Positions 22,790 through 47,147 of a stretch of DNA of 64,000 nucleotides are shown piece after piece (the first letter of the stretch is position 1; every line of letters starts with the position of its first letter). The notes beneath the pieces were generated by a model that saw nothing but the letters and a program-made list of their open reading frames with translations, ran no database searches and was not told the DNA's origin. The stretch is taken from positions 1,248,001 to 1,312,000 of the forward strand of contig OZ244717.1 of the NCBI GenBank assembly GCA_965218975.1, read 5' to 3'. A program made the translations under genes and the position numbers. Origin of the DNA: Candidatus Oxydemutatoraceae bacterium (GTDB taxonomy: Bacteria; Pseudomonadota; Gammaproteobacteria; Poriferisulfidales; Oxydemutatoraceae).

Positions 22790-22874
22790 GCCGATGTGGT
22801 GGAACAGGTAGACACGCTGTCTTGAGGGGGCAGTGGCTTCGGCCGTGCCGGTTCGAGTCCGGCCATCGGCACCA
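22790..22874 (+). tRNA. tRNA-Leu (GAG)
   Basis: GCCGATG/CATCGGC acceptor stem, CTGTC-TT-GAG-GG-GGCAG anticodon arm, long variable arm, GTTCGAGTC, CCA. Confidence 0.96.
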
Positions 22875-23024
22875 CAATGTGGTGCATCTATACAATCACC
22901 CTCAAATTTATTTTAGTATGAGTGATATCCTCTTACTAGGAAATCATGATACCCATAAAGTGCATCATATAATGCATAAGTCTTTTGTAGATTCTCGTAT
23001 ATAATGAAACCCTTGACAATTTGG

Positions 23025-23101
<77 letters not shown>

Positions 23102-27618: not shown

Positions 27619-30600
27619 TGCAAAAAGCAGCCGCTCAAAGACTGGTACGGGAGACATTGCAAGATTCTTTTGACCGGGAGCACTTCGTTTGGTTGGTCAA
27701 AAATGTCCTCAACAAATTTGACGAGTCTAAAGCACTCCATGCACGCGGATATGTTAAGGAAAAATTCAAAAATACAGTCCGAACCTACGAGCGTATCGGT
27801 ACCTACACTGATGCCAACGACAAGAACAACGACAAGAAAATAGATTTGCTCATCGTGCATTTGCAAAGAGCCAGCTCTATTGAACGAGCGAGAACCTCCC
27901 TGCGCAATTTTGTTGCTGACTACCTAAAGCAGCGAGGTATGAAAGACGCAGCGCTGGTAGCATTTGTCGCGCCCAATGGCGCCGACTGGCGTTTCTCCTT
28001 CGTCAAGATGGAGTACAAATTCGATGAGGAAGGCAAAGTTAAAGAGGAATTCACTCCGGCCCGGCGCTACTCCTTTCTGGTCGGAGAAAATGAAAACAGC
28101 CACACTGCGCAAAGCCGTCTTGTGCCGATTCTCTTAAACGATGAAGTCAATCCGACACTTGAACAACTGGAAGAAGCTTTTAGCGTTGAGCGGGTCACCA
28201 AAGAATTTTTTGAGAAGTACCACGACCTCTTTTCATGGCTCAAAGGATTGCTTGACGATGGTGTCGAGAAAGACGCCAAAATCAAAGCCGATTTCAAAGA
28301 GAAAAACATTAGTAGCGCAGACTTTGCCAAGAAACTCCTGGGCCAGATCGTGTTCCTTTACTTCCTTCAAAAGAAGGGCTGGTTCGGTGTTGCGCGCGAT
28401 CAGGAATGGGGGTCGGGCTCCAGGCGTTTTCTGAGAGAACTCTTCGAAAAGAAGCACGGCAGTTACAGAAACTTTTTCAACGATATTTTAGAGCCGCTTT
28501 TCTACGAAGCGCTGCGTCTTGAACGCCCCTCCGATGACTACTACAGTCGCTTCAAATGTCGCATTCCGTTTCTAAACGGCGGACTTTTTGATCCGTTGGG
28601 CGACTACGATTGGCAGAAGACGAACATCCTCCTACCCGACGATCTTTTCTCCAACGATCGCAAGACCAAAGAGGGCGACGAGGGCGACGGAGTTTTGGAT
28701 ATCTTTGACCGCTACAACTTCACCGTCAAAGAAGACGAGCCGTTGGAAAAAGAGGTTGCCATTGATCCGGAAATGCTCGGCAAAGTCTTTGAAAATATCT
28801 TGGAGGCCAAAGACCGCAAATCCAAAGGCACCTATTACACCCCGCGTGAAATTGTGCACTACATGTGTCAGGAAAGTCTGATCAACTATCTGGCGGCCGA
28901 GCTTGGCCTGTCTGCGGGGAGCAAACAGACAGACGAAGGCATCAGCAAAGAAGATATCGAAACGCTCATTAAATACGGCGAGGCTGCAACGGAGCACGAC
29001 AGCCGCGTGGTAGACAAAGGTCGCGAGACGGAAAGGTATCCCTTCAAACTTCCTCAGAGCGTGCGCGAGCGCGCCCAACTCATCGACGACAAGCTCGCCG
29101 CGGTCCGTGTTTGCGACCCGGCGGTCGGCTCCGGCGCGTTTCCGGTCGGTATGATGAACGAAATCGTCAGGACTCGGAACACCCTCACGGCTTACCTGCC
29201 CGCGCGTCCCACACAGACAGACCTATCTACGGACGTACAGGTGAACAAAAACGAACAACGCAGCCCGTATCACTTCAAACGCCACGCGATTCAAAACTGT
29301 CTCTACGGCGTGGACATTGACCCGGGCGCCGTGGAAATCACCAAGCTCCGCTTGTATCTTTCTCTTGTTGTGGACGAAGAAGAACGCGACAACATCCGGC
29401 CGCTGCCGAACCTTGATTATAAAATTGTGCAAGGCAATTCGCTTTTAAGCGTGGACGTAAAAGAAGATATTTTCCGCAGGAGATTGTTCTTCCCCAAACT
29501 GGAAGAACTCAAAACGCTCTATTTCAGTGAAACTAACGCCGGCAAAAAGCAGGAATACCGCAAACAGATCAACGACCGCATCAGCTGGATTAACGGCGGC
29601 CAAAAGAGTTTTAGTTTTGAAGTGTACTTCTCGGAGGTATTTCACGATCTGCCTATCGCAACGCAGGCGGGTCTATCTGCGTGCGGAAACGCGCGGGCAG
29701 GGAAAAGCGGGTTTGATGTGGTGATTGCCAATCCGCCGTATGTTAAAGAGTACGTTAACCGCTCCGCATTTGATGGTCTCAGAAACTCGCCATACTATCA
29801 AGGCAAAATAGATCTATGGTACATGTTTGCGTGTGGGGCCATAGATGTATTGAAGGAGCATGGCATTCTGGCATTTATTGCTCAGAATAACTGGGTTACC
29901 AGCCACGGCGCTTCAAAAATGAGAAACAAGATAATGAGAGACACTCAGATTTTAAATCTCTCTGATTTTGGCGCTTTCAAAATTTTTGAGGCCGGTATTC
30001 AAACAATGGTAATGATATTCCAAAAGAATGCCGAGTTAGAAAACTATTCATTCGATTATAGAAGACTCTTGGGTGATGATCTTGAAATAAGCAATGTTGT
30101 AGCACTGCTGAACAAACGGAAGAGTGCCAAAATAGAATACTTGACTCCAGAAATTGAGAAAGCTCGATTTATAGACAAGCCACTTACATTTAGCTCTTCT
30201 GATATTCAGCGGATACTTGGGAAAATTTTAGAAAACTCTAATTTCAATATGGATTCGATTGAGGAAGTTGCGCAAGGTATCGTATCACCACAAGATTATG
30301 TCAATAGAGCAAGCCAAAAAGCTCTAGGCGAGAATTTCAAAATTGGTGCGGGAATTTTTACGTTATCCACTGATGAACTTAAGGCGCTACCATTATCCAG
30401 AAATGAGTTACAACTCATTAGACCCTTTTATACAACTGATGAATTGAGTAGATGGCAAGCTAATTCTCACAACCAAAGATGGATTATCTATACAGACTCA
30501 AGCTTCAAAAACAAGAAAAAATTAAAGAACTATCCAAACGTAAAAAAACACCTTGACCAATTTAAAAAAGTTATCACTTCAGACAATGGCCCCTATGGGC

Positions 30601-31061
30601 TTCACAGAGCACGAAATGAATACTTCTTTAAGGGAGAAAAAATTATTGCGGTCAGGAAATGCGCGCGTCCTACTTTTACTTATGTTTATTTTGATAGTTA
30701 TGTATCAGCAACTTTTTACATCATCAAAACAAAGCGCGTCAATCAAAAATATCTTGTTGGGCTTTTGAATTCACAATTGATTGCATTCTGGTTAAGGCAT
30801 AAGGGGAAAATGCAAGGCACAAATTATCAGGTTGACAAAGAACCCCTTGTTAACCTTCCTCTTATCAGGCCAGATCTAGAAGTGCAGAGAACAGCAGAGC
30901 GAATAGTCAACAAAATCTTTGCTATCACCAAAGAAGACGACTATTTAGAAAACGCCACCAAGCAAGTCAAGGTCCGCGAGCACGAAAAACAAATTGACCG
31001 ATTAGTTTATAAACTTTACGGGCTTACCGAAGATGAAATCAAAATTATGGAAGGCAAATAA
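27618..31061 (+). CDS. Type IIG/Eco57I-like N6-adenine methyltransferase with C-terminal TaqI-like target recognition domain
   Basis: FLNGGLF, GTYYTPRE, DPAVGSGAF, YGVDID, IANPPYV, GLLNS, LYGLT. Confidence 0.92.
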   Translation: MQKAAAQRLVRETLQDSFDREHFVWLVKNVLNKFDESKALHARGYVKEKFKNTVRTYERIGTYTDANDKNNDKKIDLLIVHLQRASSIERARTSLRNFVADYLKQRGMKDAALVAFVAPNGADWRFSFVKMEYKFDEEGKVKEEFTPARRYSFLVGENENSHTAQSRLVPILLNDEVNPTLEQLEEAFSVERVTKEFFEKYHDLFSWLKGLLDDGVEKDAKIKADFKEKNISSADFAKKLLGQIVFLYFLQKKGWFGVARDQEWGSGSRRFLRELFEKKHGSYRNFFNDILEPLFYEALRLERPSDDYYSRFKCRIPFLNGGLFDPLGDYDWQKTNILLPDDLFSNDRKTKEGDEGDGVLDIFDRYNFTVKEDEPLEKEVAIDPEMLGKVFENILEAKDRKSKGTYYTPREIVHYMCQESLINYLAAELGLSAGSKQTDEGISKEDIETLIKYGEAATEHDSRVVDKGRETERYPFKLPQSVRERAQLIDDKLAAVRVCDPAVGSGAFPVGMMNEIVRTRNTLTAYLPARPTQTDLSTDVQVNKNEQRSPYHFKRHAIQNCLYGVDIDPGAVEITKLRLYLSLVVDEEERDNIRPLPNLDYKIVQGNSLLSVDVKEDIFRRRLFFPKLEELKTLYFSETNAGKKQEYRKQINDRISWINGGQKSFSFEVYFSEVFHDLPIATQAGLSACGNARAGKSGFDVVIANPPYVKEYVNRSAFDGLRNSPYYQGKIDLWYMFACGAIDVLKEHGILAFIAQNNWVTSHGASKMRNKIMRDTQILNLSDFGAFKIFEAGIQTMVMIFQKNAELENYSFDYRRLLGDDLEISNVVALLNKRKSAKIEYLTPEIEKARFIDKPLTFSSSDIQRILGKILENSNFNMDSIEEVAQGIVSPQDYVNRASQKALGENFKIGAGIFTLSTDELKALPLSRNELQLIRPFYTTDELSRWQANSHNQRWIIYTDSSFKNKKKLKNYPNVKKHLDQFKKVITSDNGPYGLHRARNEYFFKGEKIIAVRKCARPTFTYVYFDSYVSATFYIIKTKRVNQKYLVGLLNSQLIAFWLRHKGKMQGTNYQVDKEPLVNLPLIRPDLEVQRTAERIVNKIFAITKEDDYLENATKQVKVREHEKQIDRLVYKLYGLTEDEIKIMEGK
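28905..29702. repeat. Three clusters of short palindromic elements (28905-28934, 29195-29243, 29649-29702) in frame within the MTase gene
   Basis: CCTG(C/T)CTG...CAG(G/A)CAG(G/A)-like stems, single or tandem. Confidence 0.65.
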
Positions 31062-32062: not shown

Positions 32063-32425
32063 TTTACCCTCCGGAATAGTGTGAGCGCATATCAGACACG
32101 GAAATCTAAACTATTGCTACGTGTCTGAAAAGCAACTGCTTAAATACATTTTAAGCCGATGCGCTAGCCGAGATCAATAATTAGACACAGTAGTCCTTTA
32201 CTCTATTTGTACTTACGGGCGGTCGCTGAATAGCACTTGGCACACCATAATATTGTGGTTAGGCAGCAAATCTTTTAACACACAGTACCTATGATACGTT
32301 GCCGCTTGGTGGAAACGATATATACGTGTATCCACTGAATTGAGTGTAAGCGGACACACGAAATGAGGGCAAGAGACACAACTTGAGGGAAAATTAGTCC
32401 GGATGCGGGACTACCAGGGCTCTGA

Positions 32426-33157
32426 TCATTCAATTCTGTTTGTTTTTGGCCCTGCCGGAATTTCATCGTATGTGCGATTATTAAGTATTCGACCATTTCG
32501 GTGCTTTTGAACGCCACCCCATTGTTTGAAAAAGAACGATGCACCAAACGTTCTGCACTGATCCTTGATTGACAGAACCCAATCTTCTTTCATCGGTCTT
32601 GCGCCGGGCCCGGACTCTCCGCCGACAATAACCCAGTGAATACCCCTTAACGGCAGATCATCGACAGGGCCAATCAGTGGTTCGCAAGAGAGAAAACGTG
32701 TATGAGAAGGAACTTCCCGCAAATCATGGATACGCTGATAAACCCGATTGTCTTCTACGCTAACACCCATCCAGATATTTGGTGTCCACTTGAGCTTGTT
32801 CGCCAGGGATTTCAGGCGCCCGCTGCGTTTGGTGAGAATCTGGAAAATGTGTTGGGAACAATCGTTCATCGTTTTGAATGCTTGCTCGATAAATCCGGTT
32901 GGTACGTTTTGGTGGAAAATATCGCTCATGGAGTTGACGAATATCATGCGGGGTGAGCGCCATTTGCGGGGCGCATCCAATAAATCTTCGTGTAACGTTA
33001 GTTTGAAACCGTTCCGGTAGCGCTTATTTCCCATCAATTTGAGGCGACGGGACATACGTTCCGCATAGCAGTGCTTGCAGCCGGCACTGACCTTCGTGCA
33101 GCCCGTGACGGGGTTCCAAGTCATTTCAGTCCATTCGATTTTGGAGCGAGACGCCAT
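32426..33157 (-). CDS. DUF5131 / phage Gp37-Gp68 family three-Cys protein
   Basis: IEWT..TWNPVTGCTKVSAGCKHCYA, FVNSMSD.FH, VIVGGESG, FFFKQWGG. Confidence 0.93.
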   Translation of the reverse strand: MASRSKIEWTEMTWNPVTGCTKVSAGCKHCYAERMSRRLKLMGNKRYRNGFKLTLHEDLLDAPRKWRSPRMIFVNSMSDIFHQNVPTGFIEQAFKTMNDCSQHIFQILTKRSGRLKSLANKLKWTPNIWMGVSVEDNRVYQRIHDLREVPSHTRFLSCEPLIGPVDDLPLRGIHWVIVGGESGPGARPMKEDWVLSIKDQCRTFGASFFFKQWGGVQKHRNGRILNNRTYDEIPAGPKTNRIE

Positions 33158-33162
33158 CTTAA

Positions 33163-34056
33163 TTATCTACTCGCGTTTAGAACATGGTCGGCAAACCTCT
33201 TCGCCAAAGCTATTGCTTTTGGTGAAGTGCTTCCAACACAGAATATGAACTCATAGAGCGGTGAACTTCTCGAGTTTACCAATGTCTTTGATTTTTTCAT
33301 TAATCTTGAGCCAAACAGATTGCCCAGCTTGCGTTTGTATAGTTCAACGATTCCTTCAGCACCGGAATCTCTTTTATGGACTTTATTTACGCCGTCAAAC
33401 AAGGTCTGCTCTAAATTGACGGAATAGAGTTTTTTCCAACTGTAGTCACCAAAGACACGAGTTAGTTTCTGTGCGACCGGAGGTGGAATATCGTCTGGAT
33501 TTTTTGAAACAGGTAACAGTCGGCTAACTACATGCGTTGGGAAAAGGATCCAAGTATCTAGCGCTTTACACTTTGCTATCTTCTCAATAGTTGCCCATTC
33601 AACTTCTATGCCATACGGGTCCAGGAAAAGTACGCCCCGCCATTTTTTGTTGCCAGAGATTTCTTTCGAGATCTTGCGCAGACTAGCGTTGGCCTCGGCA
33701 TTAAAAACACGAACATGGCTTTCGCCTCCTTCCTTCAATCGTTTCAATTGCTCACATCGTTTATGGTCCTGTTCAATGAAAATCAGTTGATCAAACCTTT
33801 TTTTATCAATTTTTAAGGCTATTGATGCAGAACCTTCGTAGAATTCTTTCTGTTCCTCTTTGAGAACGGAGAGTAAATCAGTGTCTTTGCATTTCGGATA
33901 AATAAATCCTGACCCGGCGAATGCATCTATGTACACTAAATGAAAATGTTGTGTTTTTAACGCAGTGGTATAGGAATTAAGGTACTGCTCGAGCATATTC
34001 AGCTTCTGAATAGTCCAGGTTCCTCCCCAGGTTTCATTAGGTCTGTTCTGGCTCAT
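33163..34056 (-). CDS. tcmP: Three-Cys-motif partner protein TcmP (methyltransferase-like)
   Basis: GG.WT..KL..L..YL..Y, YIDAFAGSG, GSA, FLDPYG; adjacent to DUF5131. Confidence 0.88.
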   Translation of the reverse strand: MSQNRPNETWGGTWTIQKLNMLEQYLNSYTTALKTQHFHLVYIDAFAGSGFIYPKCKDTDLLSVLKEEQKEFYEGSASIALKIDKKRFDQLIFIEQDHKRCEQLKRLKEGGESHVRVFNAEANASLRKISKEISGNKKWRGVLFLDPYGIEVEWATIEKIAKCKALDTWILFPTHVVSRLLPVSKNPDDIPPPVAQKLTRVFGDYSWKKLYSVNLEQTLFDGVNKVHKRDSGAEGIVELYKRKLGNLFGSRLMKKSKTLVNSRSSPLYEFIFCVGSTSPKAIALAKRFADHVLNASR

Positions 34057-34116: not shown

Positions 34117-34212
34117 TAGAAACCTTTGATGCGGTGGCCGATGTGCTGATATTGCATGTCGGTCATCTTTTTGAGTTAGGCCGTAAGTCCCATATGTATC
34201 TGGCACTATACA
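34117..34212 (-). mobile_element. Isolated left end of IS481-like element
   Basis: Reverse complement closely matches 7776-7872 (TGTATAGTGCCAGATACAT...CATCAAAGGTTTCTA). Confidence 0.8.
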
Positions 34213-35591: not shown

Positions 35592-36743
35592 ATGACTGAT
35601 AAAAATGAACCCAGAACGCTGGTTTTCAGCTTTGACGGAACCGGCAATGAACCGAGTGATATGGGGCATTTTACCGAAGACGAGAGCATTACCAATATTC
35701 TGAAGTTACATATCCTGATGGGGGGCGGAATCGCAACGGATAACACCGACACAAAAACCCCTAGCGGATCTCTCCAAACCAACTACTATTACAACGGTAT
35801 CGGTACTCGGGAAGGAGGTCGGCAAATCCCGCTTTTGGGTCGTTTATGCTCGGCAGGGCGGAAGTTTATCAATATGATGCTTGCTCCCAGTTCCGGTGAT
35901 GCGAAGAGTATTCTTAACGAAGCCAAAGACGACTTTCAAAAATCATATAAAAACGGAGATAAGTTGGTCGTGTTCGGATTCAGCCGCGGCGCTGCGTTAG
36001 CGCGGAAATTTGCCAGTATTATCCTTGCCGCTAATTCAAAGGTTCGTGTGTCGTTTTTAGGGGTCTTCGATACCGTCGCGGCAATGAGCGGAATACACCG
36101 CAAAGGCGAACGTATCAGCAGCGACGTAGTTTTCGAAAACGGAACGCTAAATGAAAGAATTGAAAAGGCAGTGCATATCGTATCAATTGACGAGTACCGG
36201 GTACCGTTCACGCCGACGCTGATAAACGCAGATGAAAAGAACCCCGAACGCATTACCGAAGTCTGGTTTCCCGGCGTTCACAGCGATGTCGGGGGCGGAT
36301 ACTGGTTTGACGGTTTGTCCGATATTGCGCTTGAATTTATGATCAAGCAATGCCGCTCGGCATTGGATGATCATATTTCGATTCAAGACGGAAGAAACAT
36401 TAAAGGTGTCGGACAATTGTTAACAGATCAAGGTTCCGCTCTTGAAGGGCTGGAGGTTGATGATATCGCCGTCAGGCCTATGGCACACGGTGTGATGCAT
36501 ACGCACCACGGCTTATTATCGAAAATGCAAGACCAAGAACCGAGATCGGTGCATGTATGTGTTAACGATCGGCCCAGCCAAGACTTACCCGTGCTGCACG
36601 AGGCGGTAAAGGAACGATTTGATAAGGTGGCCAGCTACCGCCCGCCCGCCCTGCGAGGCTTGAAATTTAGATTGATGAAAGACGGCACAATCACAAAGAA
36701 TACAATACATGGTATCAGCGAATTGCGCGGATCAGTTCAGTAG
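35592..36743 (+). CDS. DUF2235 alpha/beta hydrolase (Tle1 phospholipase-like)
   Basis: FDGTGN, YY.GIGT, FGFSRGA, GVFDTV, WFPGVHSDVGG. Confidence 0.9.
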   Translation: MTDKNEPRTLVFSFDGTGNEPSDMGHFTEDESITNILKLHILMGGGIATDNTDTKTPSGSLQTNYYYNGIGTREGGRQIPLLGRLCSAGRKFINMMLAPSSGDAKSILNEAKDDFQKSYKNGDKLVVFGFSRGAALARKFASIILAANSKVRVSFLGVFDTVAAMSGIHRKGERISSDVVFENGTLNERIEKAVHIVSIDEYRVPFTPTLINADEKNPERITEVWFPGVHSDVGGGYWFDGLSDIALEFMIKQCRSALDDHISIQDGRNIKGVGQLLTDQGSALEGLEVDDIAVRPMAHGVMHTHHGLLSKMQDQEPRSVHVCVNDRPSQDLPVLHEAVKERFDKVASYRPPALRGLKFRLMKDGTITKNTIHGISELRGSVQ

Positions 36744-36989
36744 AGTCATTCAACAAACGGTCACCGAATGCTTCCGGATGATTTAACTTTTATTCTGAAA
36801 TAGGAACAGGGCCAAGACCACGGTAATAAACGATTATTGAATATATTTGCCAGCGCCCTTTGCGATAATGGAACGGGTTGTATGTAGATCAATGGCGCTA
36901 TGCAATGCCGCTCCCGTATGCATTCAAAGTGAGTCATTCGGTGCTGTATCCGAGCGCGACGACGATCGGATGTCTGATCGCAGATACTG

Positions 36990-37388
36990 CAAATCGGATG
37001 CTTACTTGGGCCGGACATCAATGGAGATGCTCTGCGCTCCATGAGGGCTCCCGGTACTGCGTACGACGGCCCGCTCATCGGAAAAGATCCTCAGCCATAC
37101 CACATGGATTATTACATGACCACTGCTACTGATCATGGAGGCATTCACATCAATTCCGGCATTCCCAATCATGCGTTCTACTTGCTATCTCAATATTTAG
37201 GCGGGTATGCCTGGGACCGTGCAAGACGAATTTGGTATGATGCAATACAGTCAATCAACAACCCTATGGCAACTTTTCACGAATGGGCGGGCAAGACTGT
37301 GGAAATGGCCTATCGGCTTTATGGCGCAGGGAGCATTGAAGTGCACTTTACAAGGTGTGCGTGGAAATTGGTCGGCATCAATGTTTGA
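36990..37388 (+). pseudogene. Protealysin-like M4 metalloprotease, C-terminal remnant
   Basis: LRSMRAPGTAYD..IGKDPQP.HM, GGIHINSGIPNHAFY; no HExxH or propeptide visible upstream. Confidence 0.85.
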
Positions 37389-37403
37389 GCGGGGGTAACG
37401 GCA

Positions 37404-37739
37404 ATGAAAATCTTTATTAAACGTTCAGGAGGACTGGCGAATATCGGACCGATTCAAGGAGAATTGGACACGGCGGAACTCATGCCGGATTTAGCTCAGG
37501 AGGTCAGCCGGTTGATCAAACTTGTCTCCTCTGGAAAAGCCGGCAAGAAAAATCTGTTCATGGCAGACGGCCAGCAAATTTCAGTTGGCTTTCGACCCTC
37601 GGACTCGGACAAGGACCCATACCTAGAATATGAAATTGATGAATCATCCGTTGATCCTGAATTGTTTGGGATATGTAATGAACTGGCTAACCAAGTAGTA
37701 AAAAACAGCTTAACAAGACGTCGCGCCGAAGCAGGTTAG
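37404..37739 (+). CDS. Emfourin-like protealysin inhibitor
   Basis: MKI...RSGGLA N-terminus and ADG motif; directly downstream of protealysin remnant. Confidence 0.75.
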   Translation: MKIFIKRSGGLANIGPIQGELDTAELMPDLAQEVSRLIKLVSSGKAGKKNLFMADGQQISVGFRPSDSDKDPYLEYEIDESSVDPELFGICNELANQVVKNSLTRRRAEAG

Positions 37740-37742
37740 GCA

Positions 37743-37932
37743 GTGCGGCCTTTCACCGTTAAGTGGCACAAGGAAAGCTTGGCAGGGGCTTTTACTGATG
37801 AAAGTAAACGGAAGGAATTCCGAGAAGAGCTAGAAATTTTGCGAAGGGAACTGCGATAACTATAATTCTATGTCGGCAGATATTGCCGGCGTGGAAGATT
37901 TAACCACTCTGGAACTAACAGAACCAAAGTAA
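37743..37932 (+). pseudogene. C-terminal remnant of an uncharacterised gene
   Basis: VRPFTVKWHKESLAGAF...ELR then frameshifted NYNSMSADIAGVEDLT; no start codon. Confidence 0.45.
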
Positions 37933-37964
37933 AGTAAAACAGACTAAAAAAGGAGCTTGGCACT

Positions 37965-39092
37965 ATGGCTGATCCAATAAAAAACATCTTTATAAGCCAT
38001 ATTCATGAGGAGGAGGATGAAGGTCTCAACAAACTCAAGAATTTGATCAAAGATAAAGAAATGATTCCCCAGGACTATTCAATCAATGAAGAGTGCATCA
38101 AGTCACGTATTCTGCAATCCGGCGCATTGATTGTTTATATCTCCCCTAAAACCAAGGAAAGCTAGATTGTCAACTGGGAAATTGAGTATGCCCACAGACA
38201 AGGTAAAAGAATTGTAGGGGTCTGGGCACAAGATGAAGCTGGCTGTGAGGTCCCGGAAGCATTGGACAAATATGCTGATGCCGTAGTTGGCTGGGCAGAT
38301 AACCGTACAGATAACCATATCATTAAAGCTATAAACGGAAGTATTGACGTCTGGGAAAATCCGAATGGCGCAAAATGCGCGCCACGGGATATTGACGGCC
38401 CGGAAAATCCGGACGGTACAAAATGCGCGCCCCACGAGATATCGAGCGATATAAATGCTAATGTGAGACTATTTTCTTATATTGTCACTGATGACTATGG
38501 CTTCGCCCCAAACCCTTTTTATGGGGTATGTACGCTGGCCACCTGCAAACCAGAAATTCGGAAAGAGGCCTCTGTCAGAGACTGGGTAATTGGTACTGGT
38601 AGCAAGCGCAAATGCAAACAAGGACGCCTCGTTTATGTTATGCGTGTGACGGAGACAATGACATTTAATGAATACTGGAAAGATGATCGGTTTCAACGAA
38701 AAAAGCCAAACTTGAGAGGAAGTTGGAAACAAGCATCTGGTGACAACATCTACTTCTGGGATGATAAGAAGTGGCAGCAACAGAAATCTTACCACGGTTG
38801 CGATGATGTTAAGCACGACACACAGACTAATAGGGTGCTGCTTAGTACGAAGAAGTATGCGTATTGGGGCGGCTCAGGGCCAAAAATACCTAAAGAGTTT
38901 CGTGACTATAACGGGGTTGATATCTGCACTGGCCGAGGTTGAAAATATAAGTTTTCTAAAGCGTTGGTCAATGACTTTCTCACTTGGTTGTGTTATCAGA
39001 TGTGTCATCTGGATAAAAAAGGCTACCTTGGTACACCCTCGGACTGGCCCTGTTGCCAAAGACCGGAAAAACGAATCGACTGTCAAGGGTGA
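37965..39092 (+). pseudogene. TIR-like (DUF1863/ThsB-type) domain fused in frame to Nmad2 domain, interrupted by TAG 38163-38165 and TGA 38940-38942
   Basis: NIFISH, LIVYISPKT, VNWEIEYA..GKRIVGVW; SYIV.DDYGFAPNPFYG.CTLATCKP.IR; one continuous frame. Confidence 0.8.
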
Positions 39093-39171
39093 GTTGCTTT
39101 TACGCAACTATATACGAGAAACCGAGCCGACAGACAGCTGACTCCCTAAGGATGATCTGCGCCCGGTTCTT

Positions 39172-40218
39172 ATGGAACTGTTTGGTGAAGTCGGCAGTAT
39201 TATGACAACTGCTAAGAAACACATCCTGGAAAATAAGGCTTACTCCGGATATCGGCAAGCGACGGAGGAAGAATTTGGTGACACGCTTTGGTACTTCACA
39301 GCGTTGTGCCGACGTCTCGGCACGAGTGTTGACACTATTTTTTCTGAAACAGTGGACCAAGATAGCTATAGAAAGTGTCTTGGTGCAAGCGATTCGCCAG
39401 GTAGTACAGTTTCTTACATATTTTCCATTGATGAACTACCCACTCCCGATAAGACGCTACTTAATTTGGGGGAAGCAACTGCGGCATTATTTGGTATAAA
39501 GAGCCTGAATGAGCAGACATATAATTTGCTGCGGACATTCTCGGACTGTTATTTACAAGCACTTCAGGCGATAAACCTAAGTTTTTCAAAGATCGCTCGT
39601 ATGAACATCAAGAAGACACATGGGCGGTTCCTTAATCCTGACGTGACAAAACTGCCAACATTCGATAGCGAATTTTCAGAGGAAGAAAGGCTTCCTTGGT
39701 GTTTTGAAATCAAGATTACACAACGGGCAAGTGGTCAATGTTATTTGCAATGGAATGGTGTATTTATCGGCGGCCCGTTAACAGACAACCTTCTTGATCC
39801 GGACGGCTATCGATTTCATGATGTGTTTCACTTTGCGCATGCCGCTATTCTTCACTGGTCTCCTACTTTTCGTGGCCTGATAAAGCAGAAGCGAAAGAGT
39901 AATCCGAAGATTGATGAGGCTGAGGATGGTGGTAGGGCAATTGTCGTTGAGGAAGGACTTACTGCATGGATATTTTCACGCGCCAAACAGCTCAATTTTT
40001 TTGAGGGACATAACAGTATCTCCTTTGATTTGCTTAAGACCGTGGAGCAGTTTGTACAGGGATACGAAGTGGAAAGCTGTTCTCTGAGGCTATGGGAAGA
40101 ATCTATCCTGAAAGGATACGAGGTCTTTAGACAGGTACGGGATAACAATGGTGGGATTGTGGTTGGAAATCGAGGGGCCCGTACTATTGAGTATAAGTCA
40201 ATAGATGAGAAAGAGTAA
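39172..40218 (+). CDS. MazG-like nucleotide pyrophosphohydrolase with MazG_C domain (N-terminus separated by in-frame TGA 39139-39141)
   Basis: LFGEVGS, EEFGDTLWY, DGYRFHDVFH, KRKSNP.IDE.EDGGRAIVVEEG. Confidence 0.85.
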   Translation: MELFGEVGSIMTTAKKHILENKAYSGYRQATEEEFGDTLWYFTALCRRLGTSVDTIFSETVDQDSYRKCLGASDSPGSTVSYIFSIDELPTPDKTLLNLGEATAALFGIKSLNEQTYNLLRTFSDCYLQALQAINLSFSKIARMNIKKTHGRFLNPDVTKLPTFDSEFSEEERLPWCFEIKITQRASGQCYLQWNGVFIGGPLTDNLLDPDGYRFHDVFHFAHAAILHWSPTFRGLIKQKRKSNPKIDEAEDGGRAIVVEEGLTAWIFSRAKQLNFFEGHNSISFDLLKTVEQFVQGYEVESCSLRLWEESILKGYEVFRQVRDNNGGIVVGNRGARTIEYKSIDEKE

Positions 40219-40221
40219 GAC

Positions 40222-40872
40222 ATGAGACCGGCCCAATACGTGGGAGCATTGTGTGGGTTGAATTTTGAAAATACGTTTAATCCTTATTCAGACCGTTGTG
40301 TTGTTCACGACTTGGATGACGCACCGCGCAGTAGAGCACAGATGTTGCAATCCATGCTTGAGGTAGCAACAGAACAGGAAATTGATTCTCTCTGGATTGG
40401 ACGCGATCTGGGTCATCGCGGCGGCAGGAGAACAGGGCTTGCCTTCACAGATGATGTTCATATTCATGCTCACATTCGGCGGTGGGGTTTATCTATAAAT
40501 CATCGGCCAACGAGGGGGAAAGTGGTTATTGAGCGAACTGCGGCTGTCATCTGGCAGGCTCTTTCACGAGTTAACGCATCTGTCTTTCTTTGGAATGTTT
40601 TTCCACTACACCCCCACGAGCCTCACAACCCTTTCAGTAATCGCCCTCATAATTCTTGCGAGCAACGGTCCGGTGAGGAATTTCTCTCTCAACTTATTCT
40701 GCTGTTGAAACCGGATCAATTGATTGCAATAGGCAATGATGCAATGCAAACAGTGCTCCGCTTATGCGCTCGAGACAAAGTTATTCAAGTACGTCATCCC
40801 AGTTATGGTGGACAAACGCAATTTTTAGCGCAAATGCGTAAACTGTACGATCTGAATGGAAGTATTGTCTAG
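40222..40872 (+). CDS. Uracil-DNA glycosylase superfamily protein
   Basis: FNPY, GRDLG.RGGRRTGLAFTD, WNVFPLHPH, NR, RHPSYGG. Confidence 0.88.
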   Translation: MRPAQYVGALCGLNFENTFNPYSDRCVVHDLDDAPRSRAQMLQSMLEVATEQEIDSLWIGRDLGHRGGRRTGLAFTDDVHIHAHIRRWGLSINHRPTRGKVVIERTAAVIWQALSRVNASVFLWNVFPLHPHEPHNPFSNRPHNSCEQRSGEEFLSQLILLLKPDQLIAIGNDAMQTVLRLCARDKVIQVRHPSYGGQTQFLAQMRKLYDLNGSIV

Positions 40873-40882
40873 GACATTAACT

Positions 40883-41095
40883 TGTACTGTTCAGATACAT
40901 ACGGAACTCATGGCACGGACTCAAAAAGTGTCCGATATGCGGTATTGGCACATCGGTCATCGCATCAAAGGTTTCTATTGTAAAATGATCGTTTTAGCTC
41001 CAAAGATGGAGGCTATGATAACAACCGGTGCCAACAAGAGAAACACGATGCCTTCATTTTGGGAAGGTTGTAGCTTCCGGACATATTCAAGGTCA
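40883..41095 (+). mobile_element. Decayed left end and transposase N-terminus of IS481-like element
   Basis: Homologous to 7776-7985 (TGTACTGTTCAGATACAT...HIGHRIKGFY...FWEGC). Confidence 0.8.
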
Positions 41096-41366: not shown

Positions 41367-42299
41367 ATGGAATTGAAGCCTTCTATAACCTCACCTGCTA
41401 GTGAACCATCCGAATGTTTCCGGAATACCGACGGTGGGTGGGCATTGCCGCTAGAAATCGGAACGCAGCGAATATGTCGGTGCAAAGTCAACCATATCAA
41501 TTGTTTGAGCGCCAAGGAGTGGCTGAAGAATCAGTTGGGAGTATGGAGGTTCAACTACGAGGACAGGGACATCCGCGACAAGGCAGTTCATCCGGCCACG
41601 TACCCTATCGCTCTTGCACGGCGCGTCATAGAGCAATTTACCCATGAAGGCGAATTAGTGCTTGATCCGTTCGTGGGCAGCGGAACGTCGTTGCTGGCTG
41701 CGCAGGATACGAACCGGAATGCCGTCGGATTTAATTTGTCGTCAGCCTATGTGGACCTGTGCCGTAAAAGGACTGCGCAACAAAGCTTAGTTCAACATGC
41801 TCAGCAAGTTGCAGTGCAAGATGATGCTCGGAACATACCGAAATATCTGGCCGAGGAAACTGTCAGCCTCATCGTCACATCCCCGCCGTATGCTAATCTT
41901 CTGAATCGCAAGCGACAAAATAAATCCAGGCGCGACCGACGCAATGACCAGCTTGACAAGGTTGAGCAGTATTCGCAAGACCCGCGAGACTTAGGAACGA
42001 TGAACCTCGATTTGTATACGGAGAATATGGAAGCGATCTTTGCATCCCTGTTGCCGTTGCTTCGTCCGAAAGCGCATTGCGTTATTAATGTTCCTGATAT
42101 GTGGTGGGAGAATGAACGGATTACAATCCATGTTGCATTGATTGAAGAATTGCGCCGCTGCGGCTACGAACTTCGCAATATCATCATTTGGGATCGCACA
42201 AACATTGTAAATCGGATTGGAATCTTCGGTTGGCCGAGCAACTACATCACGATGGGCACCACATTCGAATATCTGTTGGATTTCTGGCGGCCGGAATGA
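41367..42299 (+). CDS. Orphan N4-C/N6-A DNA methyltransferase
   Basis: HPATYP, VLDPFVGSGT, IVTSPPY, IIWD. Confidence 0.88.
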   Translation: MELKPSITSPASEPSECFRNTDGGWALPLEIGTQRICRCKVNHINCLSAKEWLKNQLGVWRFNYEDRDIRDKAVHPATYPIALARRVIEQFTHEGELVLDPFVGSGTSLLAAQDTNRNAVGFNLSSAYVDLCRKRTAQQSLVQHAQQVAVQDDARNIPKYLAEETVSLIVTSPPYANLLNRKRQNKSRRDRRNDQLDKVEQYSQDPRDLGTMNLDLYTENMEAIFASLLPLLRPKAHCVINVPDMWWENERITIHVALIEELRRCGYELRNIIIWDRTNIVNRIGIFGWPSNYITMGTTFEYLLDFWRPE

Positions 42300-42396: not shown

Positions 42397-43662
42397 ATGT
42401 TCAGATTTATACATGCTGCAGACATCCACCTCGATAGTTCACTACACGGCTTGGAGCGATATGAAGGAGCTCCAGTAGATGAGATCCGAAGCGCCACCCG
42501 CCGAGCTTTTGATAATTTAATCAAACTTGCAATTGATGAAGAAGTGGCATTTGTGCTGCTGGCCGGGGACTTGTACGACGGCGACTGGAAGGATTACAAC
42601 ACGGGGCTCTATTTTGTAGAACGTATGAGTAGGTTGCGAGAAGAAGATATCCGCGTTTTCATTGTGGCAGGAAACCATGATGCTGCCAGCCAAATCACCA
42701 AACACCTTCAATTACCTGAAAACGTAACTCTATTTTCAACCAAGAATCCGGAAAGGATTGACCTAGATGACCTAAATGTAGCTGTATATGGGCAGGGCTT
42801 CGCAAAACGGGCAGTAATGGACGATCTTTCACAGGCATATCCACAAGGGAACTCACAACTCTTTAATATTGGCCTGCTGCACACTTGCCTAGAGGGTAAG
42901 GTAGGCCATGAGCCCTATGCGCCTTGCACTGTAGAAGGGCTACGATCCAAAGGATACCAGTACTGGGCTCTGGGTCATGTCCATAAACGGGAGGAGGTAA
43001 GTCAGGATCCATGGATTGTATTTCCTGGGAATATCCAGGGACGACACATCCGTGAGGCAGGTCCAAAGGGCTGTACCTTGGTTACAGTTGAAAACGGAGA
43101 GATTGTGGAGCTGAAACACTGTGAACTGGATGTGATGCGCTGGACTCTGTGTGAACTTGATGTTTCTGTTAGTGAGACAGTGGATGATGTCTATGAGCAA
43201 GTTCGTAAAGGACTGCAGACTGAATTAGATGCTGCCGAAGGGAGGCCAATTGCTGTTCGCTTAGTCTTACAAGGAGAATGTTCTGCCCATTCAGCATTAC
43301 AAGCGGGTCGGGACCGCTGGGTACAGGAGTATCGTGCCCTGGCAACTGGACTCGGTGGAGCAGGTGTCTGGCTTGAGAAGGTTATCATCAAGGTAACACC
43401 GTCTGTTTCCACTGATGTGATTCTTGCGCGCAATGATGCGTTGGGGGGCCTAATGCGTACTATCCGAGATATGAAGCTGGATGCCACGGCTTTAGAGGGT
43501 CTCGCCGATGAGATATCCGCACTTCGACAGAAACTTCCTGCTGAACTGTTGGGAGGCGATGACCCCTTTGATCCTACCAAACCGGAATTACTTAAAGATG
43601 CCCTAGAGGATATCAAAGAGCTTCTCGTTAACCGCCTGTTGTCCACGGAGAAAGGGCCATGA
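42397..43662 (+). CDS. Mre11/SbcD-like metallophosphoesterase (YhaO type)
   Basis: HAADIHLD, AGDLYD, GNHD, LLH, WALGHVH, FPGNIQGRH. Confidence 0.92.
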   Translation: MFRFIHAADIHLDSSLHGLERYEGAPVDEIRSATRRAFDNLIKLAIDEEVAFVLLAGDLYDGDWKDYNTGLYFVERMSRLREEDIRVFIVAGNHDAASQITKHLQLPENVTLFSTKNPERIDLDDLNVAVYGQGFAKRAVMDDLSQAYPQGNSQLFNIGLLHTCLEGKVGHEPYAPCTVEGLRSKGYQYWALGHVHKREEVSQDPWIVFPGNIQGRHIREAGPKGCTLVTVENGEIVELKHCELDVMRWTLCELDVSVSETVDDVYEQVRKGLQTELDAAEGRPIAVRLVLQGECSAHSALQAGRDRWVQEYRALATGLGGAGVWLEKVIIKVTPSVSTDVILARNDALGGLMRTIRDMKLDATALEGLADEISALRQKLPAELLGGDDPFDPTKPELLKDALEDIKELLVNRLLSTEKGP

Positions 43663-46600
43663 TGATTCATGAGTTGTGTCTTGCCGCATTCGGGCCCTTT
43701 ACCGATAAAGTATTGGTTTTTGATGGGGCAAGGCTCCATATTGTCTACGGACCTAATGAGGCAGGGAAGAGTGCTGCTCTTCGGGGTTTGAAAGCCCTGT
43801 TGTATGGCATAGAAGAACGTACTCTCGACAACTTCCTTCACGTCAACGACAAGCTCCGTATACATGGTTATTTACGGAAAGCTAATGGACATGAGCTTAA
43901 GTTGGTTCGGCGTAAAGGCCGAAAAAATACGTTATTAACTCTTGATGGTGAAGTACTTAGTGGTGAGGTGCTGGTACCCTTTCTTCATGGCGTTACTTCG
44001 GAGCTCTTCGAGACGCTTTTTGGGATTGATCACAGGGCATTGGTACAAGGGGGGCAAGAAATTCTTGAGCAGAAGGGAGAAGTCGGACAGGCACTTTTTT
44101 CGGCAGCGCTTGGCAGCCAAGCACACACTGTACTTGCACAACTGAATGAAGAGGCTGATGCTCTTTTTCGACCAAGGGGCTCAACACAGAAGATCAATTC
44201 AGCGTTAAAGTCGTATGCAGAATTTCGCAAGAAGATCAGGGAGCAATCCCTCTCATCCGGAAAATGGGATGAGCAACGCCATGTTTTGGAGCAAACGATG
44301 AAGGAACTGGAGAAAATTCAATCTCAACTAGCGGACAACAGGATTAAGGTAAACCATTTAAAGCGTATCCGGCGAGTTTTACCGAAACTTGCCAAGCGTC
44401 GTGAACTTCTTCAGAAATTGGAATTGTTAAAAGATGTCGTCCTCCTTCCGGATGATTTTTCAGGCCGTCGGCAAAGGGCAATGAATAAGTTGGAAACAGC
44501 TCAGGTCATAGTTGGGAAGGCAAGCCCTCGTCTCGAAGAATTGCAGGAACGGCTAGGAGGGTTATCAACAAACCAAGAATTGTTAGATCAGGCAGAAAAC
44601 ATTGAAGATCTACATGCGCGCCTTGGAGGTCATCGAAAAGCACAGCAAGACCGACCATATCTTGAATCAGAAGTCAAACAACTACTGACAGATACTGAAT
44701 CCATACTCAAAGAGATTCGTCCTGATCTCGAACTAAAGGATATCGAGGAATTACGTCCAGTATTAACTAGACGGCAGGCTATAACCAAGTTGGCCAGTAA
44801 GAATACCAGACTGAATGCTAGTATAGAACAGTTAGAGTCCAGTTTGCGTGAAACAGAAACGCGGTTGAGGAAAGCCCGCAAAGAGCGTGATGAGGTCCCC
44901 GCGTCAGGCTCTACAGACACATTGCATCGAACGATTGCAGCAGCTAGGAAACAGGGAGAATTAGATGCCTTGGTTAAATCCACTCAAGGTCAGCTTACAA
45001 GCCTGCAGACAGATTACACTGCTAGTCTCTCGCGACTCACGCTTTGGGATGGTGAATTGGAAGATTTAGCTGGTTTGAAGATGCCCAACCGAGAAAGCAT
45101 TAATCAATTTGAAAAGGTATCAGACAAAATTGAAAACAATTTTCAGCGGTTTGAAGAGAAGAGAAAAGAGACGATTAATTCCCTACAAAATATCTCGCAG
45201 AGACTTGATGAGATTGAGCGTATAGGGAAAGTACCTACGGAGGCAGCCCTCACTAATGCCAGATCCGAACGTGATCAGGTGTGGCAGTTGCTACGTCGGC
45301 AGTGGGTGGAAGGTGAAGACGTGTCAGCCGAGGCAAGTTATCACCAAGGTGAAGGAACATTGCCGGATGTATTCGAAAACCGGCTTGAAAATGCCGATGA
45401 AATGTCTGATCGTTTGCGCCGTGAAGCGGACCGGGTCCATGAATTGGCAAACCTTCAGTCCAAGCAGGAAGGTGGGCTAAGGCAAGTAGAGAAGATAGAC
45501 AAGCAGCTTGAGGCAACTACCGCCGAAAAGGACCAGCTTGTTACTGACTGGCAGCAATTGTGGACGCCTTGTCAGATTGTTCCGCGCAGTCCGCGTGAGA
45601 TGCGCGCTTGGCTGGATAATTTCGAAAAACTTCGTGAGCGGGTGGAACAGTTGAATTTGCTTCGCCAGAAAGTGAAAGAGCTTCAGCAAAATCGTAAGAT
45701 GCGTATCCAGCTGCTTAATGAGCAGTTAGCAGGGCTGGGAAGGGCGGGCTCGACGTCGGGGGAGCTTGAAACCGTACTCTTGGAATGCGAAACGTTTGCT
45801 AAACAGCTTGATGGTGCCAAACAGAAACGCGATTCGTTGGATAAGGAGGCCAAAGACCGGGAAATAACTGTTGAATCGTTGAGAGAAGAACATCGACTGG
45901 CAACCGAAAAGCTTGAAGCATGGAAGACGCAGTGGGGTGAGTTGATGCAGGGTCTTGGTCTGCAAAGCGAGACTTTACCATCAGAAGTTGACGATTTCAT
46001 TGATAAGGTCAAGGAATTATTCTCAAAACAGCACGAAGTAGAAAAACTGCGAATACGCATCAATGCTATCGACACAGATTCAACGTCTTTCTGCAGTCAG
46101 GTGAAGGTCATGGTTGCTACGATTGCCTTGGAACTTCTTAGTGATTTGTCTGCAGATGATGCCGTCATGCGTCTCAATTCGCTGTTATCGGAAAACCGAT
46201 CAAAACAAACAAAGCGACAACAGATTGAAGAGCAAGTTGAACAAGTGAAGCAGGAAATACAGGAGTCGAAAGGATCTATCCGTACTATGACGGATCTGCT
46301 GGATGCATTATGTGTAGAGGCGAAATGTGGTAACCACAATCAGCTAGAAGAGGCCGAACGCAGGTCGTCAGATCGTCTTAGAATCAAAGAGTCAATCAAT
46401 ACGGTTGAACAAGGGGTTCTGGAGACAGGCGAAGGTATAACCATTGCAGAGTTGGAGGCCGAAGTTGAAGGGATAAAACCGGATATGCTGCCCGGGCAAA
46501 TCAAAGAGTTGAATAATAAGATTGATAATGAACTCGAGCCAAAACGGACTGAACTGGCGGAGAAAAAGGGACGTGAAGAAAGGGAACTTGAGCGCATGGA

Positions 46601-47147
46601 TGGCAGTGATGACGTGGCGGAGCTTGCTGACCAAGCCCACGCTATCCTTGCCAATATTCGTTCAGAGGCTGAACGCTATATTCGAGTAAAACTCGCCAGA
46701 AAGATATTGTATGACCAGATTGAGCTTTATCGAAAAGAAAACCAAGGGCCGCTGGTCAAGCGTGCCAGTGAGCACTTTTCCAGACTGACGCTTGGGTCAT
46801 TTTATAGGCTCATTGCTGATATTAATGATAAGGATGAGCCTGTTCTTGCTGGGATCCGGTCAACTGGGAAGCAAGTATATGTGGAAGGAATGAGCACCGG
46901 AACTCGAGACCAGCTATATCTTGCATTGCGTTTGGCCTCACTAGAAAAATATATGGAAAGGTCCGAGTCGATGCCTTTCATTGTTGACGATATACTTGTG
47001 GACTTTGATGATGATCGTTCACAAGCAGCATTGAATTCCTTGGCGGAATTAGCTGAAAAGACACAAGTTATCCTATTTACTCATCACGTGCAGGTTGTTG
47101 AGCAGTCAAAGCAACTGAATGCGCCGGTACAGGTGCATGAGTTGTAG
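43659..47147 (+). CDS. Rad50/SbcC-like coiled-coil ATPase (YhaN type)
   Basis: GPNEAGKS, long coiled coil, MSTGTRDQLYLALRLA, IVDDILVDFDD, FTHH. Confidence 0.92.
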   Translation: MMIHELCLAAFGPFTDKVLVFDGARLHIVYGPNEAGKSAALRGLKALLYGIEERTLDNFLHVNDKLRIHGYLRKANGHELKLVRRKGRKNTLLTLDGEVLSGEVLVPFLHGVTSELFETLFGIDHRALVQGGQEILEQKGEVGQALFSAALGSQAHTVLAQLNEEADALFRPRGSTQKINSALKSYAEFRKKIREQSLSSGKWDEQRHVLEQTMKELEKIQSQLADNRIKVNHLKRIRRVLPKLAKRRELLQKLELLKDVVLLPDDFSGRRQRAMNKLETAQVIVGKASPRLEELQERLGGLSTNQELLDQAENIEDLHARLGGHRKAQQDRPYLESEVKQLLTDTESILKEIRPDLELKDIEELRPVLTRRQAITKLASKNTRLNASIEQLESSLRETETRLRKARKERDEVPASGSTDTLHRTIAAARKQGELDALVKSTQGQLTSLQTDYTASLSRLTLWDGELEDLAGLKMPNRESINQFEKVSDKIENNFQRFEEKRKETINSLQNISQRLDEIERIGKVPTEAALTNARSERDQVWQLLRRQWVEGEDVSAEASYHQGEGTLPDVFENRLENADEMSDRLRREADRVHELANLQSKQEGGLRQVEKIDKQLEATTAEKDQLVTDWQQLWTPCQIVPRSPREMRAWLDNFEKLRERVEQLNLLRQKVKELQQNRKMRIQLLNEQLAGLGRAGSTSGELETVLLECETFAKQLDGAKQKRDSLDKEAKDREITVESLREEHRLATEKLEAWKTQWGELMQGLGLQSETLPSEVDDFIDKVKELFSKQHEVEKLRIRINAIDTDSTSFCSQVKVMVATIALELLSDLSADDAVMRLNSLLSENRSKQTKRQQIEEQVEQVKQEIQESKGSIRTMTDLLDALCVEAKCGNHNQLEEAERRSSDRLRIKESINTVEQGVLETGEGITIAELEAEVEGIKPDMLPGQIKELNNKIDNELEPKRTELAEKKGREERELERMDGSDDVAELADQAHAILANIRSEAERYIRVKLARKILYDQIELYRKENQGPLVKRASEHFSRLTLGSFYRLIADINDKDEPVLAGIRSTGKQVYVEGMSTGTRDQLYLALRLASLEKYMERSESMPFIVDDILVDFDDDRSQAALNSLAELAEKTQVILFTHHVQVVEQSKQLNAPVQVHEL

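Follow-up and report, generated by a model that had tools for sequence, protein, structure and literature searches.

A decayed copy of a conserved TIR-Nmad2-MazG-UDG cassette, a probable anti-phage system, in an uncultured gammaproteobacterium

Does a cluster of genes for a TIR domain, an Nmad2 domain, a MazG-like enzyme and a UDG-fold protein constitute a defence system, and does the copy carried by Candidatus Oxydemutatoraceae bacterium still work? The cluster occupies 37740-40872 of a 64,000-nucleotide stretch of contig OZ244717.1 (assembly GCA_965218975.1, positions 1,248,001 to 1,312,000), which we refer to herein as the window; positions are those of the window unless another sequence is named. 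Having compared this interval with related loci in other genomes, we consider it probable that the interval is the pseudogenised form of an anti-phage cassette that is conserved and horizontally spread, and whose intact copies would use a TIR-based mechanism with Nmad2 as the sensor. The copy in the window is a non-functional relic: TIR, Nmad2, MazG and a fifth gene, which we call U168, are broken, and only UDG can still be read.

All five cassette elements lie on the forward strand in tight packing (Table 1). The initial annotation of this DNA had reported co-oriented genes for TIR, Nmad2, MazG/MazG_C and UDG, and each was recovered at the position given for it, with a match to a Pfam family. 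The WE motif that it described as retained in the TIR domain is also present, with W71 and E72 invariant across 26 aligned TIR domains, and the remnant of a fifth gene that it placed upstream proved to be U168, since the residues encoded at 37740-37856 align with this protein. In 19 homologues of approximately 160 amino acids, the remnant is 44-79% identical to residues ~100-138. The TIR, Nmad2 and MazG region was also translated through its stops, with an X placed at each. This led to an extension of the TIR match to the PADLOC ThsB model PDLC00418 to positions 4-149 of 155 (E 1.5e-38), and of the Nmad2 match to positions 3-196 of the 200 in its family model. Because these matches lengthen on read-through, the stops in TIR and Nmad2 sit within the domains rather than at their ends. 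The two pseudogenes share one frame in the window because the TIR stop codon has been lost; in homologues they are two separate genes.

Table 1. Cassette elements and further genes of the surrounding defence island, with positions in the window.
Feature	Position	Strand	Evidence and remarks
U168 remnant	37740..37932	+	last third only; abuts the emfourin stop (37737-37739); +1 frameshift near 37857
ThsB-like TIR pseudogene	37965..38459	+	open reading frame (ORF) 37965-38165; Pfam PF08937 (ThsB_TIR), E 2.9e-05; PADLOC PDLC00418
Nmad2 pseudogene	38460..39091	+	ORF 38262-38942; Pfam PF18753 (Nmad2), E 6.1e-57; same frame as TIR
MazG-like NTP pyrophosphatase with MazG_C	39094..40218	+	longest intact ORF 39172-40218, without the N-terminal helix; Pfam PF18722 (MazG_C), E 2.9e-79, 265.5 bits against a gathering score of 29.7
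UDG-fold protein, 216 aa	40222..40872	+	ORF 40222-40872; Pfam PF03167 (UDG), 39.9 bits against a cut-off of 24.3; UDG superfamily; sole intact cassette gene
PLD-SNF2 helicase and type IIG restriction-modification enzyme	24394-31061		defence island
PDC-M41 pair	32426-34056		defence island
Tle1-like hydrolase	35592-36743		defence island
Type II methyltransferase	41367-42299		defence island
Metallophosphatase and 1162-aa AAA_27 ATPase (weak LmuB match)	42397-47147		defence island

The lesions in the window copy go well beyond single stop codons. TIR is interrupted by an in-frame TAG (38163-38165), Nmad2 by an in-frame TGA (38940-38942) and MazG by an in-frame TGA (39139-39141) in its N-terminal helix region, which forms an extra codon when aligned with 15 homologues. 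In an alignment with 25 homologous TIR domains, the window sequence lacks conserved segments, leaving gaps of nine and five columns, has an isoleucine beside the stop where all 25 homologues have an aromatic residue, and carries a four-residue insertion. Its C-terminal tail has been replaced, and with the stop codon lost the frame continues into Nmad2. A 48-bp tandem duplication lies within the TIR pseudogene at approximately 38355-38441. Nmad2, aligned with its homologues, has a seven-column gap in the conserved SHHS..DG.PN segment, a four-residue insertion and a C-terminal extension. MazG has a glutamate at a nearly invariant glycine and otherwise retains the invariant acidic residues found in the 15 homologues. 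U168 is both truncated and frameshifted, the residues after 37856 continuing in the next frame as NYNSMSADIAGVEDLTTLE. UDG is intact, and 27 columns are invariant across 24 aligned sequences that include that of the window. The initial annotation had called this copy partly decayed; decay is evident, and "partly" understates it, with four of the five genes disrupted and the copy as a whole non-functional.

Over 37700-40166, contigs from three public sequencing runs, all belonging to one study, show the window sequence unchanged, stops included; in a second study, low-depth contigs span two of the three stops, TAG at 38163 and TGA at 39139, without difference. Since the stops are reproduced in contigs from public runs, they are not assembly errors; the assembly may itself derive from the first study, whose contigs are therefore not independent confirmation. 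The DNA upstream of the cassette is damaged as well. An M4 (thermolysin-type) peptidase gene is fragmented over 36761-37739, where only a C-terminal ORF of 115 amino acids scores (PF02868, E 3.4e-26), and beside this fragment is an emfourin-like ORF that falls under the cut-off of its family (PF20242, 21.2 bits against 27). The emfourin stop abutting the truncated U168 marks the 5' breakpoint of the cassette. Damaged copies also occur in other genomes: at locus L002 (8570-11461), MazG is split by an insertion of approximately 1.6 kb with two reverse-strand ORFs, and at L031 and L047 MazG is divided into two ORFs.

To determine how often this gene combination recurs, one genome per species was scanned with an Nmad2 alignment, which yielded at least 534 loci, and the best 80 were kept for counts. 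Queried with the proteins of the window, 77 of these loci contained TIR, 59 MazG, 45 UDG and 29 the U168 remnant; other genes of the island occurred in 0-2. When intact queries and strict adjacency were applied, TIR was found directly upstream of Nmad2 in 76 of the 80; the exceptions were three loci at contig edges (L004, L047 and L076) and one with a partial TIR (L068). The full order TIR-Nmad2-MazG-UDG was retained in 38 loci, and order and spacing in the window are those of the related cassettes. A combination that recurs 38 times in 80 with the same order and spacing is far beyond chance. The gene-neighbourhood search that the initial annotation had suggested thus finds the arrangement conserved elsewhere, completely in nearly half of the loci compared and for its TIR-Nmad2 pair in almost all of them.

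These loci are widely distributed. Hosts include Gammaproteobacteria, Alphaproteobacteria, Chloroflexota, Latescibacterota, Binatia, Poribacteria, Nitrospira and Streptomyces, among others, and Nmad2 of this type is present on 19 plasmids. In one annotated plasmid example, the genes read hypothetical, TIR, hypothetical, NTP pyrophosphohydrolase and uracil-DNA glycosylase, with 4-bp gene overlaps. An intact cassette is carried by plasmid NZ_AP023248.1 of Mesorhizobium sp. 131-2-1, at approximately 17.8-21.4 kb. At four loci (L003, L010, L022 and L025) the cassette is embedded in a type I restriction-modification (R-M) operon, between hsdM and hsdS/hsdR. The wider Nmad2 family is rare and patchy, with occurrences in five of 400 other genomes sampled from the phylum and in none of 14 control genomes. 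Of 30 further genomes from the same family or order, one contained cassette DNA, as weak partial matches only, and no DNA match to a cassette from an enterobacterial metagenome-assembled genome (MAG; L062) was found in complete E. coli genomes. Many of the most similar cassettes come from sponge-associated MAGs whose phyla are unrelated (Poribacteria, Latescibacterota, Binatia, Dehalococcoidia, Poriferihabitaceae and Porifericomitaceae); this enrichment may reflect exchange within one habitat, or merely sampling.

The neighbours of the 80 loci were clustered and named by Pfam, and the architectures were then read. TIR-Nmad2 is the constant core of the cassettes, and the enzyme modules downstream of it are exchangeable. 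MazG and UDG alternate or combine with a fusion of dTMP kinase and 5-hydroxymethyldeoxyuridine (5-hmdU) DNA kinase (23/80), a thymidylate-synthase-like gene (13/80) and a dCTP-deaminase-like gene (5/80), so that MazG-UDG is one of at least two alternative modules of pyrimidine-nucleotide enzymes. U168, detected in 32 of the 80 loci with an intact query, is a conserved component that precedes TIR in intact copies. It belongs to no Pfam, NCBIfam or PADLOC family. A lead from the Atlas search that would equate it with DUF6650 (score 0.85, rank 9) was rejected, as HMMER matched none of 20 alignment members at E values up to 1. Nor is homology evident between the two alternative modules; in an hhalign comparison, the alignments of MazG and of the dTMP-kinase/5-hmdU-kinase fusion matched with a probability of 0.03.

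A longer TIR protein of approximately 415 amino acids and a SLOG-cluster-2 protein (PF18163) stand beside the cassette in 23 and 22 of the 80 loci, respectively, in either orientation (loci with the pair include L005, L008, L009, L018, L026, L032, L053, L057, L060, L069, L071 and L073). PADLOC has no model for either protein. This pair may represent either an additional module or a partner system akin to Thoeris.

What do the cassettes do when they are intact? The closest system with a recorded phenotype is DS-4 (NTTI) of E. coli, described by DeWeirdt, Mahoney and Laub with DefensePredictor, which comprises a thymidylate synthase, an adenylate kinase, a 5-hmdU kinase, TIR and Nmad2 (PMC13092281). 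According to Table S7 of that paper, DS-4 acts on phage lambda with a -log of the efficiency of plating (EOP) of 0.93 and smaller plaques (PMC13092281). As in the window, TIR and Nmad2 are adjacent, at the 3' end of DS-4, and the enzymes that accompany them there, known to us from the published gene list, correspond to the module of thymidylate-synthase-like and dTMP-kinase/5-hmdU-kinase genes that accompanies TIR-Nmad2 in 23 of the 80 related loci. The two systems differ in their enzymes, MazG/MazG_C and UDG in the window taking the place of the thymidylate synthase, deoxynucleoside monophosphate (dNMP) kinase and 5-hmdU DNA kinase of DS-4, and in that DS-4 is intact and was tested whereas the window copy is broken; Pfam found no thymidylate synthase, dNMP kinase or 5-hmdU DNA kinase gene in the window cassette. 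The MazG-UDG form is thus a variant of TIR-Nmad2 systems, of a kind known from DS-4, and the variant has already been predicted in print (PMC13092281).

We conclude that the intact cassettes are most likely an anti-phage system. A defence role had been put forward in the initial annotation, and it is favoured by the position in a defence island, the spread over many phyla, the embedding in type I R-M operons and the protection reported for DS-4 in E. coli (PMC13092281).

Other published systems resemble parts of the cassette. The systems predicted with DefensePredictor use the same domain vocabulary, as given in the text on Fig. 6F and its legend (PMC13092281). The same source describes UDNG, a stand-alone UDG-superfamily protein of 214 amino acids from E. 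coli that was predicted to be defensive and was cloned, and that bears no DS number there (PMC13092281). The window TIR is of the ThsB type (PF08937, PDLC00418), as in Thoeris; in contrast to Thoeris, the constant partner of TIR is Nmad2, which has no PADLOC model, and no PADLOC model for ThsA (SIR2-SLOG or Macro) matched any of the 19 island proteins scanned. PADLOC-DB 2.0.0, a resource against which the initial annotation had suggested checking the operon, covers only the TIR component, as ThsB. The nearest mechanistic precedent is PUA-Cal-HAD, in which a PUA-clan domain senses m6-dAMP, leading to depletion of deoxynucleoside triphosphates (dNTPs) (bioRxiv 10.64898/2026.01.15.699771). That preprint also describes PUA-like domains fused to TIR, and MazG-like enzymes that can replace the Calcineurin-CE effector (bioRxiv 10.64898/2026.01.15.699771). 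The analogy has limits: Pfam finds no Calcineurin-CE or HAD domain in the cassette, Nmad2 is linked to PUA-like domains by predicted fold only, at Z ~7, and the text of the preprint contains no "Nmad". Full-text literature searches returned no description of a TIR-Nmad2-MazG-UDG operon; Burroughs et al. 2015 (NAR 43:10633) may already describe it.

Since the window copy is broken, we turned to intact homologues to evaluate the component proteins. The intact TIR of L024 matches PADLOC ThsB PDLC00418 over positions 3-155 of 155 (E 3.7e-66). A structural model of the intact Nmad2 from the same locus (predicted local distance difference test, pLDDT, 85.9) had its best structural matches in YTH (Z 7.0, root-mean-square deviation (rmsd) 3.7, 134 aligned residues) and ASCH (Z 6.8, rmsd 4.0, 135 aligned) domains. 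Eighteen chains reached a Z of at least 5 and none reached 8; 12 of the 18 are titled YTH, ASCH, McrB-N or THYN1 readers, and the top rows are consistently YTH, ASCH or EVE. Foldseek against viral structures gave weak ASCH/EVE-like rows only. The models support a PUA-like (YTH/ASCH/EVE) base-reader fold for Nmad2, an assignment that we base on the coherence of the match list and not on the Z values.

For the intact MazG protein of L003, the model (pLDDT 89.6) superposes through residues 17-198 on dimeric dUTPases (1w2y, Z 11.2, rmsd 4.2, 160 aligned; 5myd, Z 11.2, rmsd 3.3, 151 of 160), and it matches the minimal MazG 1vmg at Z 7.4 over 81 of 83 residues. The invariant acidic residues are E80, E107, E108 and D111 in window numbering. 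These models support a dimeric-dUTPase-type, all-alpha NTP pyrophosphatase as the MazG N-domain, from which known dimeric dUTPases and MazG proteins differ in that the cassette protein has the additional MazG_C domain, called a predicted nucleotide kinase in the DefensePredictor text (PMC13092281). UDG has GRDLGHRGGRRTG (GRDLG) as motif A and RHPSYGG as motif B. It thereby departs from family-4/5 enzymes, its motif A being neither GEAPG nor GQDPY, while the divergent UDG paralogues at L037 and L067 retain a family-4/5-like GEAPG; its likeness to the NCBIfam family-4 models is weak and below threshold, with 16.3 bits for TIGR00758 (cut-off 125.3) and 16.5 bits for NF040953 (cut-off 250). NCBIfam has no model that covers any of the five cassette proteins, and a sequence search of solved structures returned nothing usable for Nmad2 or MazG (best E 0.27 and 0.11) and no match for UDG. 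Taken as a whole, the fold results would fit the sensing of a nucleotide or a base without indicating which one.

Prediction of a TIR-Nmad2 complex gave a score of 0.89, against 0.00 for the best of three controls. A score of this height is reached by 58 of 80 solved complexes and by two of 110 mismatched pairs. The prediction runs agree in at least 89% of contacts, and both partners have a pLDDT of at least 91. The predicted interface comprises the TIR tail (residues 146-158) together with residues 113-118, and Nmad2 residues 83-92, 110-116 and 190-198. These models suggest that TIR and Nmad2 form a complex through the C-terminal tail of TIR, and natural TIR-Nmad2 fusions, of which there are three among the 120 best homologues listed, point the same way. 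It is exactly this tail that the TIR in the window has lost.

On these grounds we propose the following mechanism for intact cassettes. Nmad2, docked on TIR, would sense a pyrimidine-derived nucleotide or base that appears on infection and would control TIR, which might then either consume NAD+ or make an ADP-ribose-derived signal. The dUTPase-like MazG and UDG would act on dNTPs of the deoxyuridine (dU) type and on DNA containing such bases. They could do so to produce the ligand, in the form of a dNMP or a free base, or they could be effectors themselves, depleting dNTPs or leaving abasic sites in replicating phage DNA.

A more specific version of this proposal, to which we give little credence, places TIR-Nmad2 at the centre of a separate class of immunity resembling Thoeris, in which the cassette enzymes would turn phage-perturbed pyrimidine pools or DNA into a ligand for a PUA-like reader held on the TIR tail, thereby freeing TIR activity. 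MazG would convert dNTP to dNMP and UDG would release the free base, and the thymidylate-synthase-like and kinase enzymes of DS-4 would be their counterparts. A bolder form would have TIR use the base released by UDG in a base exchange on NAD+, giving a base-ADP-ribose signal.

Several observations weigh against the Nmad2-sensed, TIR-based mechanism or against extending it to the whole family. The roles of sensor and executor among the cassette proteins are ones that we infer. A best Z of 7, as obtained for Nmad2, is by the structural search tool's own note typical of models without a clear relative, and the dUTPase match of MazG, at Z 11.2, is below the level of 13 under which the tool advises caution for helical proteins. 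Foldseek against the PDB found no match at E ≤0.001 for the Nmad2 model (best 8.7e-03, to the same families) or for the MazG model, and the Pfam MazG model did not match the MazG N-domain. As for the MazG_C fold, the rows of the structural search reached residues 17-198 only, and the Atlas search gave no usable match, so that we assign no fold to this domain. The 80 loci counted are the most similar ones and not a random sample; in five sampled loci of the wider Nmad2 family, TIR is a partner in one, Nmad3 is a neighbour in two, and neither is present in two. (The Nmad2-Nmad3 loci are L089 and L090, one of them beside an AbiEii toxin gene.) Profile-level phage relatives of two components occur in PHROGs, phrog_229 ("MazG-like pyrophosphatase") for the MazG_C region (E 1.8e-36) and phrog_6988 for TIR (E 1.8e-13), and they mean that the parts are not exclusively cellular. 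The support from DS-4 consists of a single weak phenotype, an approximately ninefold drop in EOP, lambda being the only NTTI row in Table S7 (PMC13092281). Finally, the published list of predicted defence domains includes MazG, MazG-C, NMAD and UDG, with the remark that "none have been experimentally validated", and it credits an earlier prediction to Burroughs et al. 2015 (PMC13092281). The statement in the initial annotation that it knew of no experimental characterisation accordingly holds for the MazG-UDG form, and it does not extend to the sibling DS-4, which has been tested.

The alternative that survives best, though we regard it as unlikely, is a restriction-like system specific to phages with non-canonical bases, in line with the modified-base phage target proposed in the initial annotation. 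Here MazG would hydrolyse modified dNTPs, UDG would excise the base, Nmad2 would read it, and TIR would be a back-up abortive arm. The resemblance of the Nmad2 model to the modified-base readers YTH, ASCH, EVE and McrB-N accords with this reading, as do a UDG fold and a dUTPase-like MazG that both act on pyrimidine variants. That the alternative module includes two enzymes of the hydroxymethyluracil (hmU) pathway, a 5-hmdU DNA kinase and one resembling thymidylate synthase, might also be taken in its favour; however, these enzymes make or phosphorylate hmdU rather than destroy it, which fits poorly with a purely degradative anti-modification role. Moreover, the DNA of phage lambda carries no hypermodified base. 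It is nevertheless on lambda that the sole DS-4 phenotype recorded in Table S7 was obtained (PMC13092281).

An immune role is set aside altogether if the cassette is a nucleotide or DNA modification pathway for the DNA of the cell or of a mobile element, in which MazG would deplete a canonical dNTP and the UDG-fold enzyme would swap or take out a base, with no immune sensor-effector pair. The Pfam name of Nmad2, "nucleotide modification associated domain", invites this interpretation, and the two Nmad2-Nmad3 pairs in five wider-family loci, the phage thymidine-hypermodification enzymes of the sibling module (thymidylate-synthase-like enzyme and 5-hmdU DNA kinase) and the presence of MazG_C in phages seen through phrog_229 are all compatible with it. 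However, TIR is an obligate partner, at 76 of 80 loci, the cassette lies within R-M operons and defence islands, and the MazG-UDG form has no conserved enzyme for building bases, such as a glycosyltransferase or methylase. In addition, tblastn searches of 50,697 phage records with MazG and Nmad2 homologues gave no match for this subfamily of either protein, and DS-4 lowered the plating of lambda, as listed in Table S7 (PMC13092281). We judge such a pathway improbable, and less likely than an anti-phage system.

Hardly credible is a window copy that still functions by reading through or recoding its three stops to give a TIR-Nmad2 fusion and a full-length MazG: all three lesions are in-frame stops with no frameshifts among them, natural TIR-Nmad2 fusions occur and MazG keeps most invariant residues, but conserved TIR segments are deleted and the tail of the predicted interface is replaced, a conserved motif of Nmad2 is short of seven residues, U168 has suffered both truncation and a frameshift, long neighbours end normally under translation table 11 (for example the 1162-aa ORF at 43659-47147), and the adjoining M4 peptidase gene is likewise fragmented, a sign of general gene decay.

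The preferred reading, an anti-phage cassette with TIR under the control of Nmad2, bears on a wider problem. TIR-based immunity is common to bacteria, plants and animals, and this cassette family offers a tractable case for finding out what a bacterial TIR protein senses. Its apparent design is a small TIR held by its tail on a predicted base-reader and wired to alternative sets of pyrimidine-nucleotide enzymes, and the family is common in environmental and symbiont genomes, inside restriction operons. The identity of the ligand would show whether uracil-type or hydroxymethyluracil-type nucleotides serve as infection signals in bacteria, and solving the cassette would also give the Nmad2 and MazG_C families a function. 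The window copy itself is of interest only as a case of decaying defence genes in a genome that is small and symbiont-like.

The host genome consists of one contig of 2.08 Mb. Among named proteins, the nearest to its RimP is that of a Candidatus Oxydemutatoraceae MAG, with 55% identity. In this genome, the cassette lies in a stretch of 24.7 kb from tRNA-Met to rimP (23101-47800) that is a defence island, flanked by tRNA-Leu/tRNA-Met (22790-23101) on one side and by rimP-nusA-infB (from 47805) on the other; its further defence genes are given in Table 1. A scan for promoters and terminators did no better than chance, giving seven promoter-like sites where 7.2 would be expected.

The genome contains the UDG gene a second time, at 634995-635730 (L085, 1434-2236). 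This second copy is intact, encodes 218 amino acids and has ~92-93% nucleotide identity to 40172-40967 of the window, with a ratio of nonsynonymous to synonymous substitution rates (dN/dS) of 0.39 over 215 codons in comparison with the window UDG. This copy adjoins a second DUF5131/PDC-M41 segment, 96.7% identical to 32435-33310 of the window (segment region 32344-33310), and at the junction there is a 77-bp repeat that occurs at two other sites in the window (34127-34203 and 7785-7861). The position of the second copy beside both the DUF5131/PDC-M41 duplicate and this repeat suggests that the cassette's UDG end was relocated or recombined independently.

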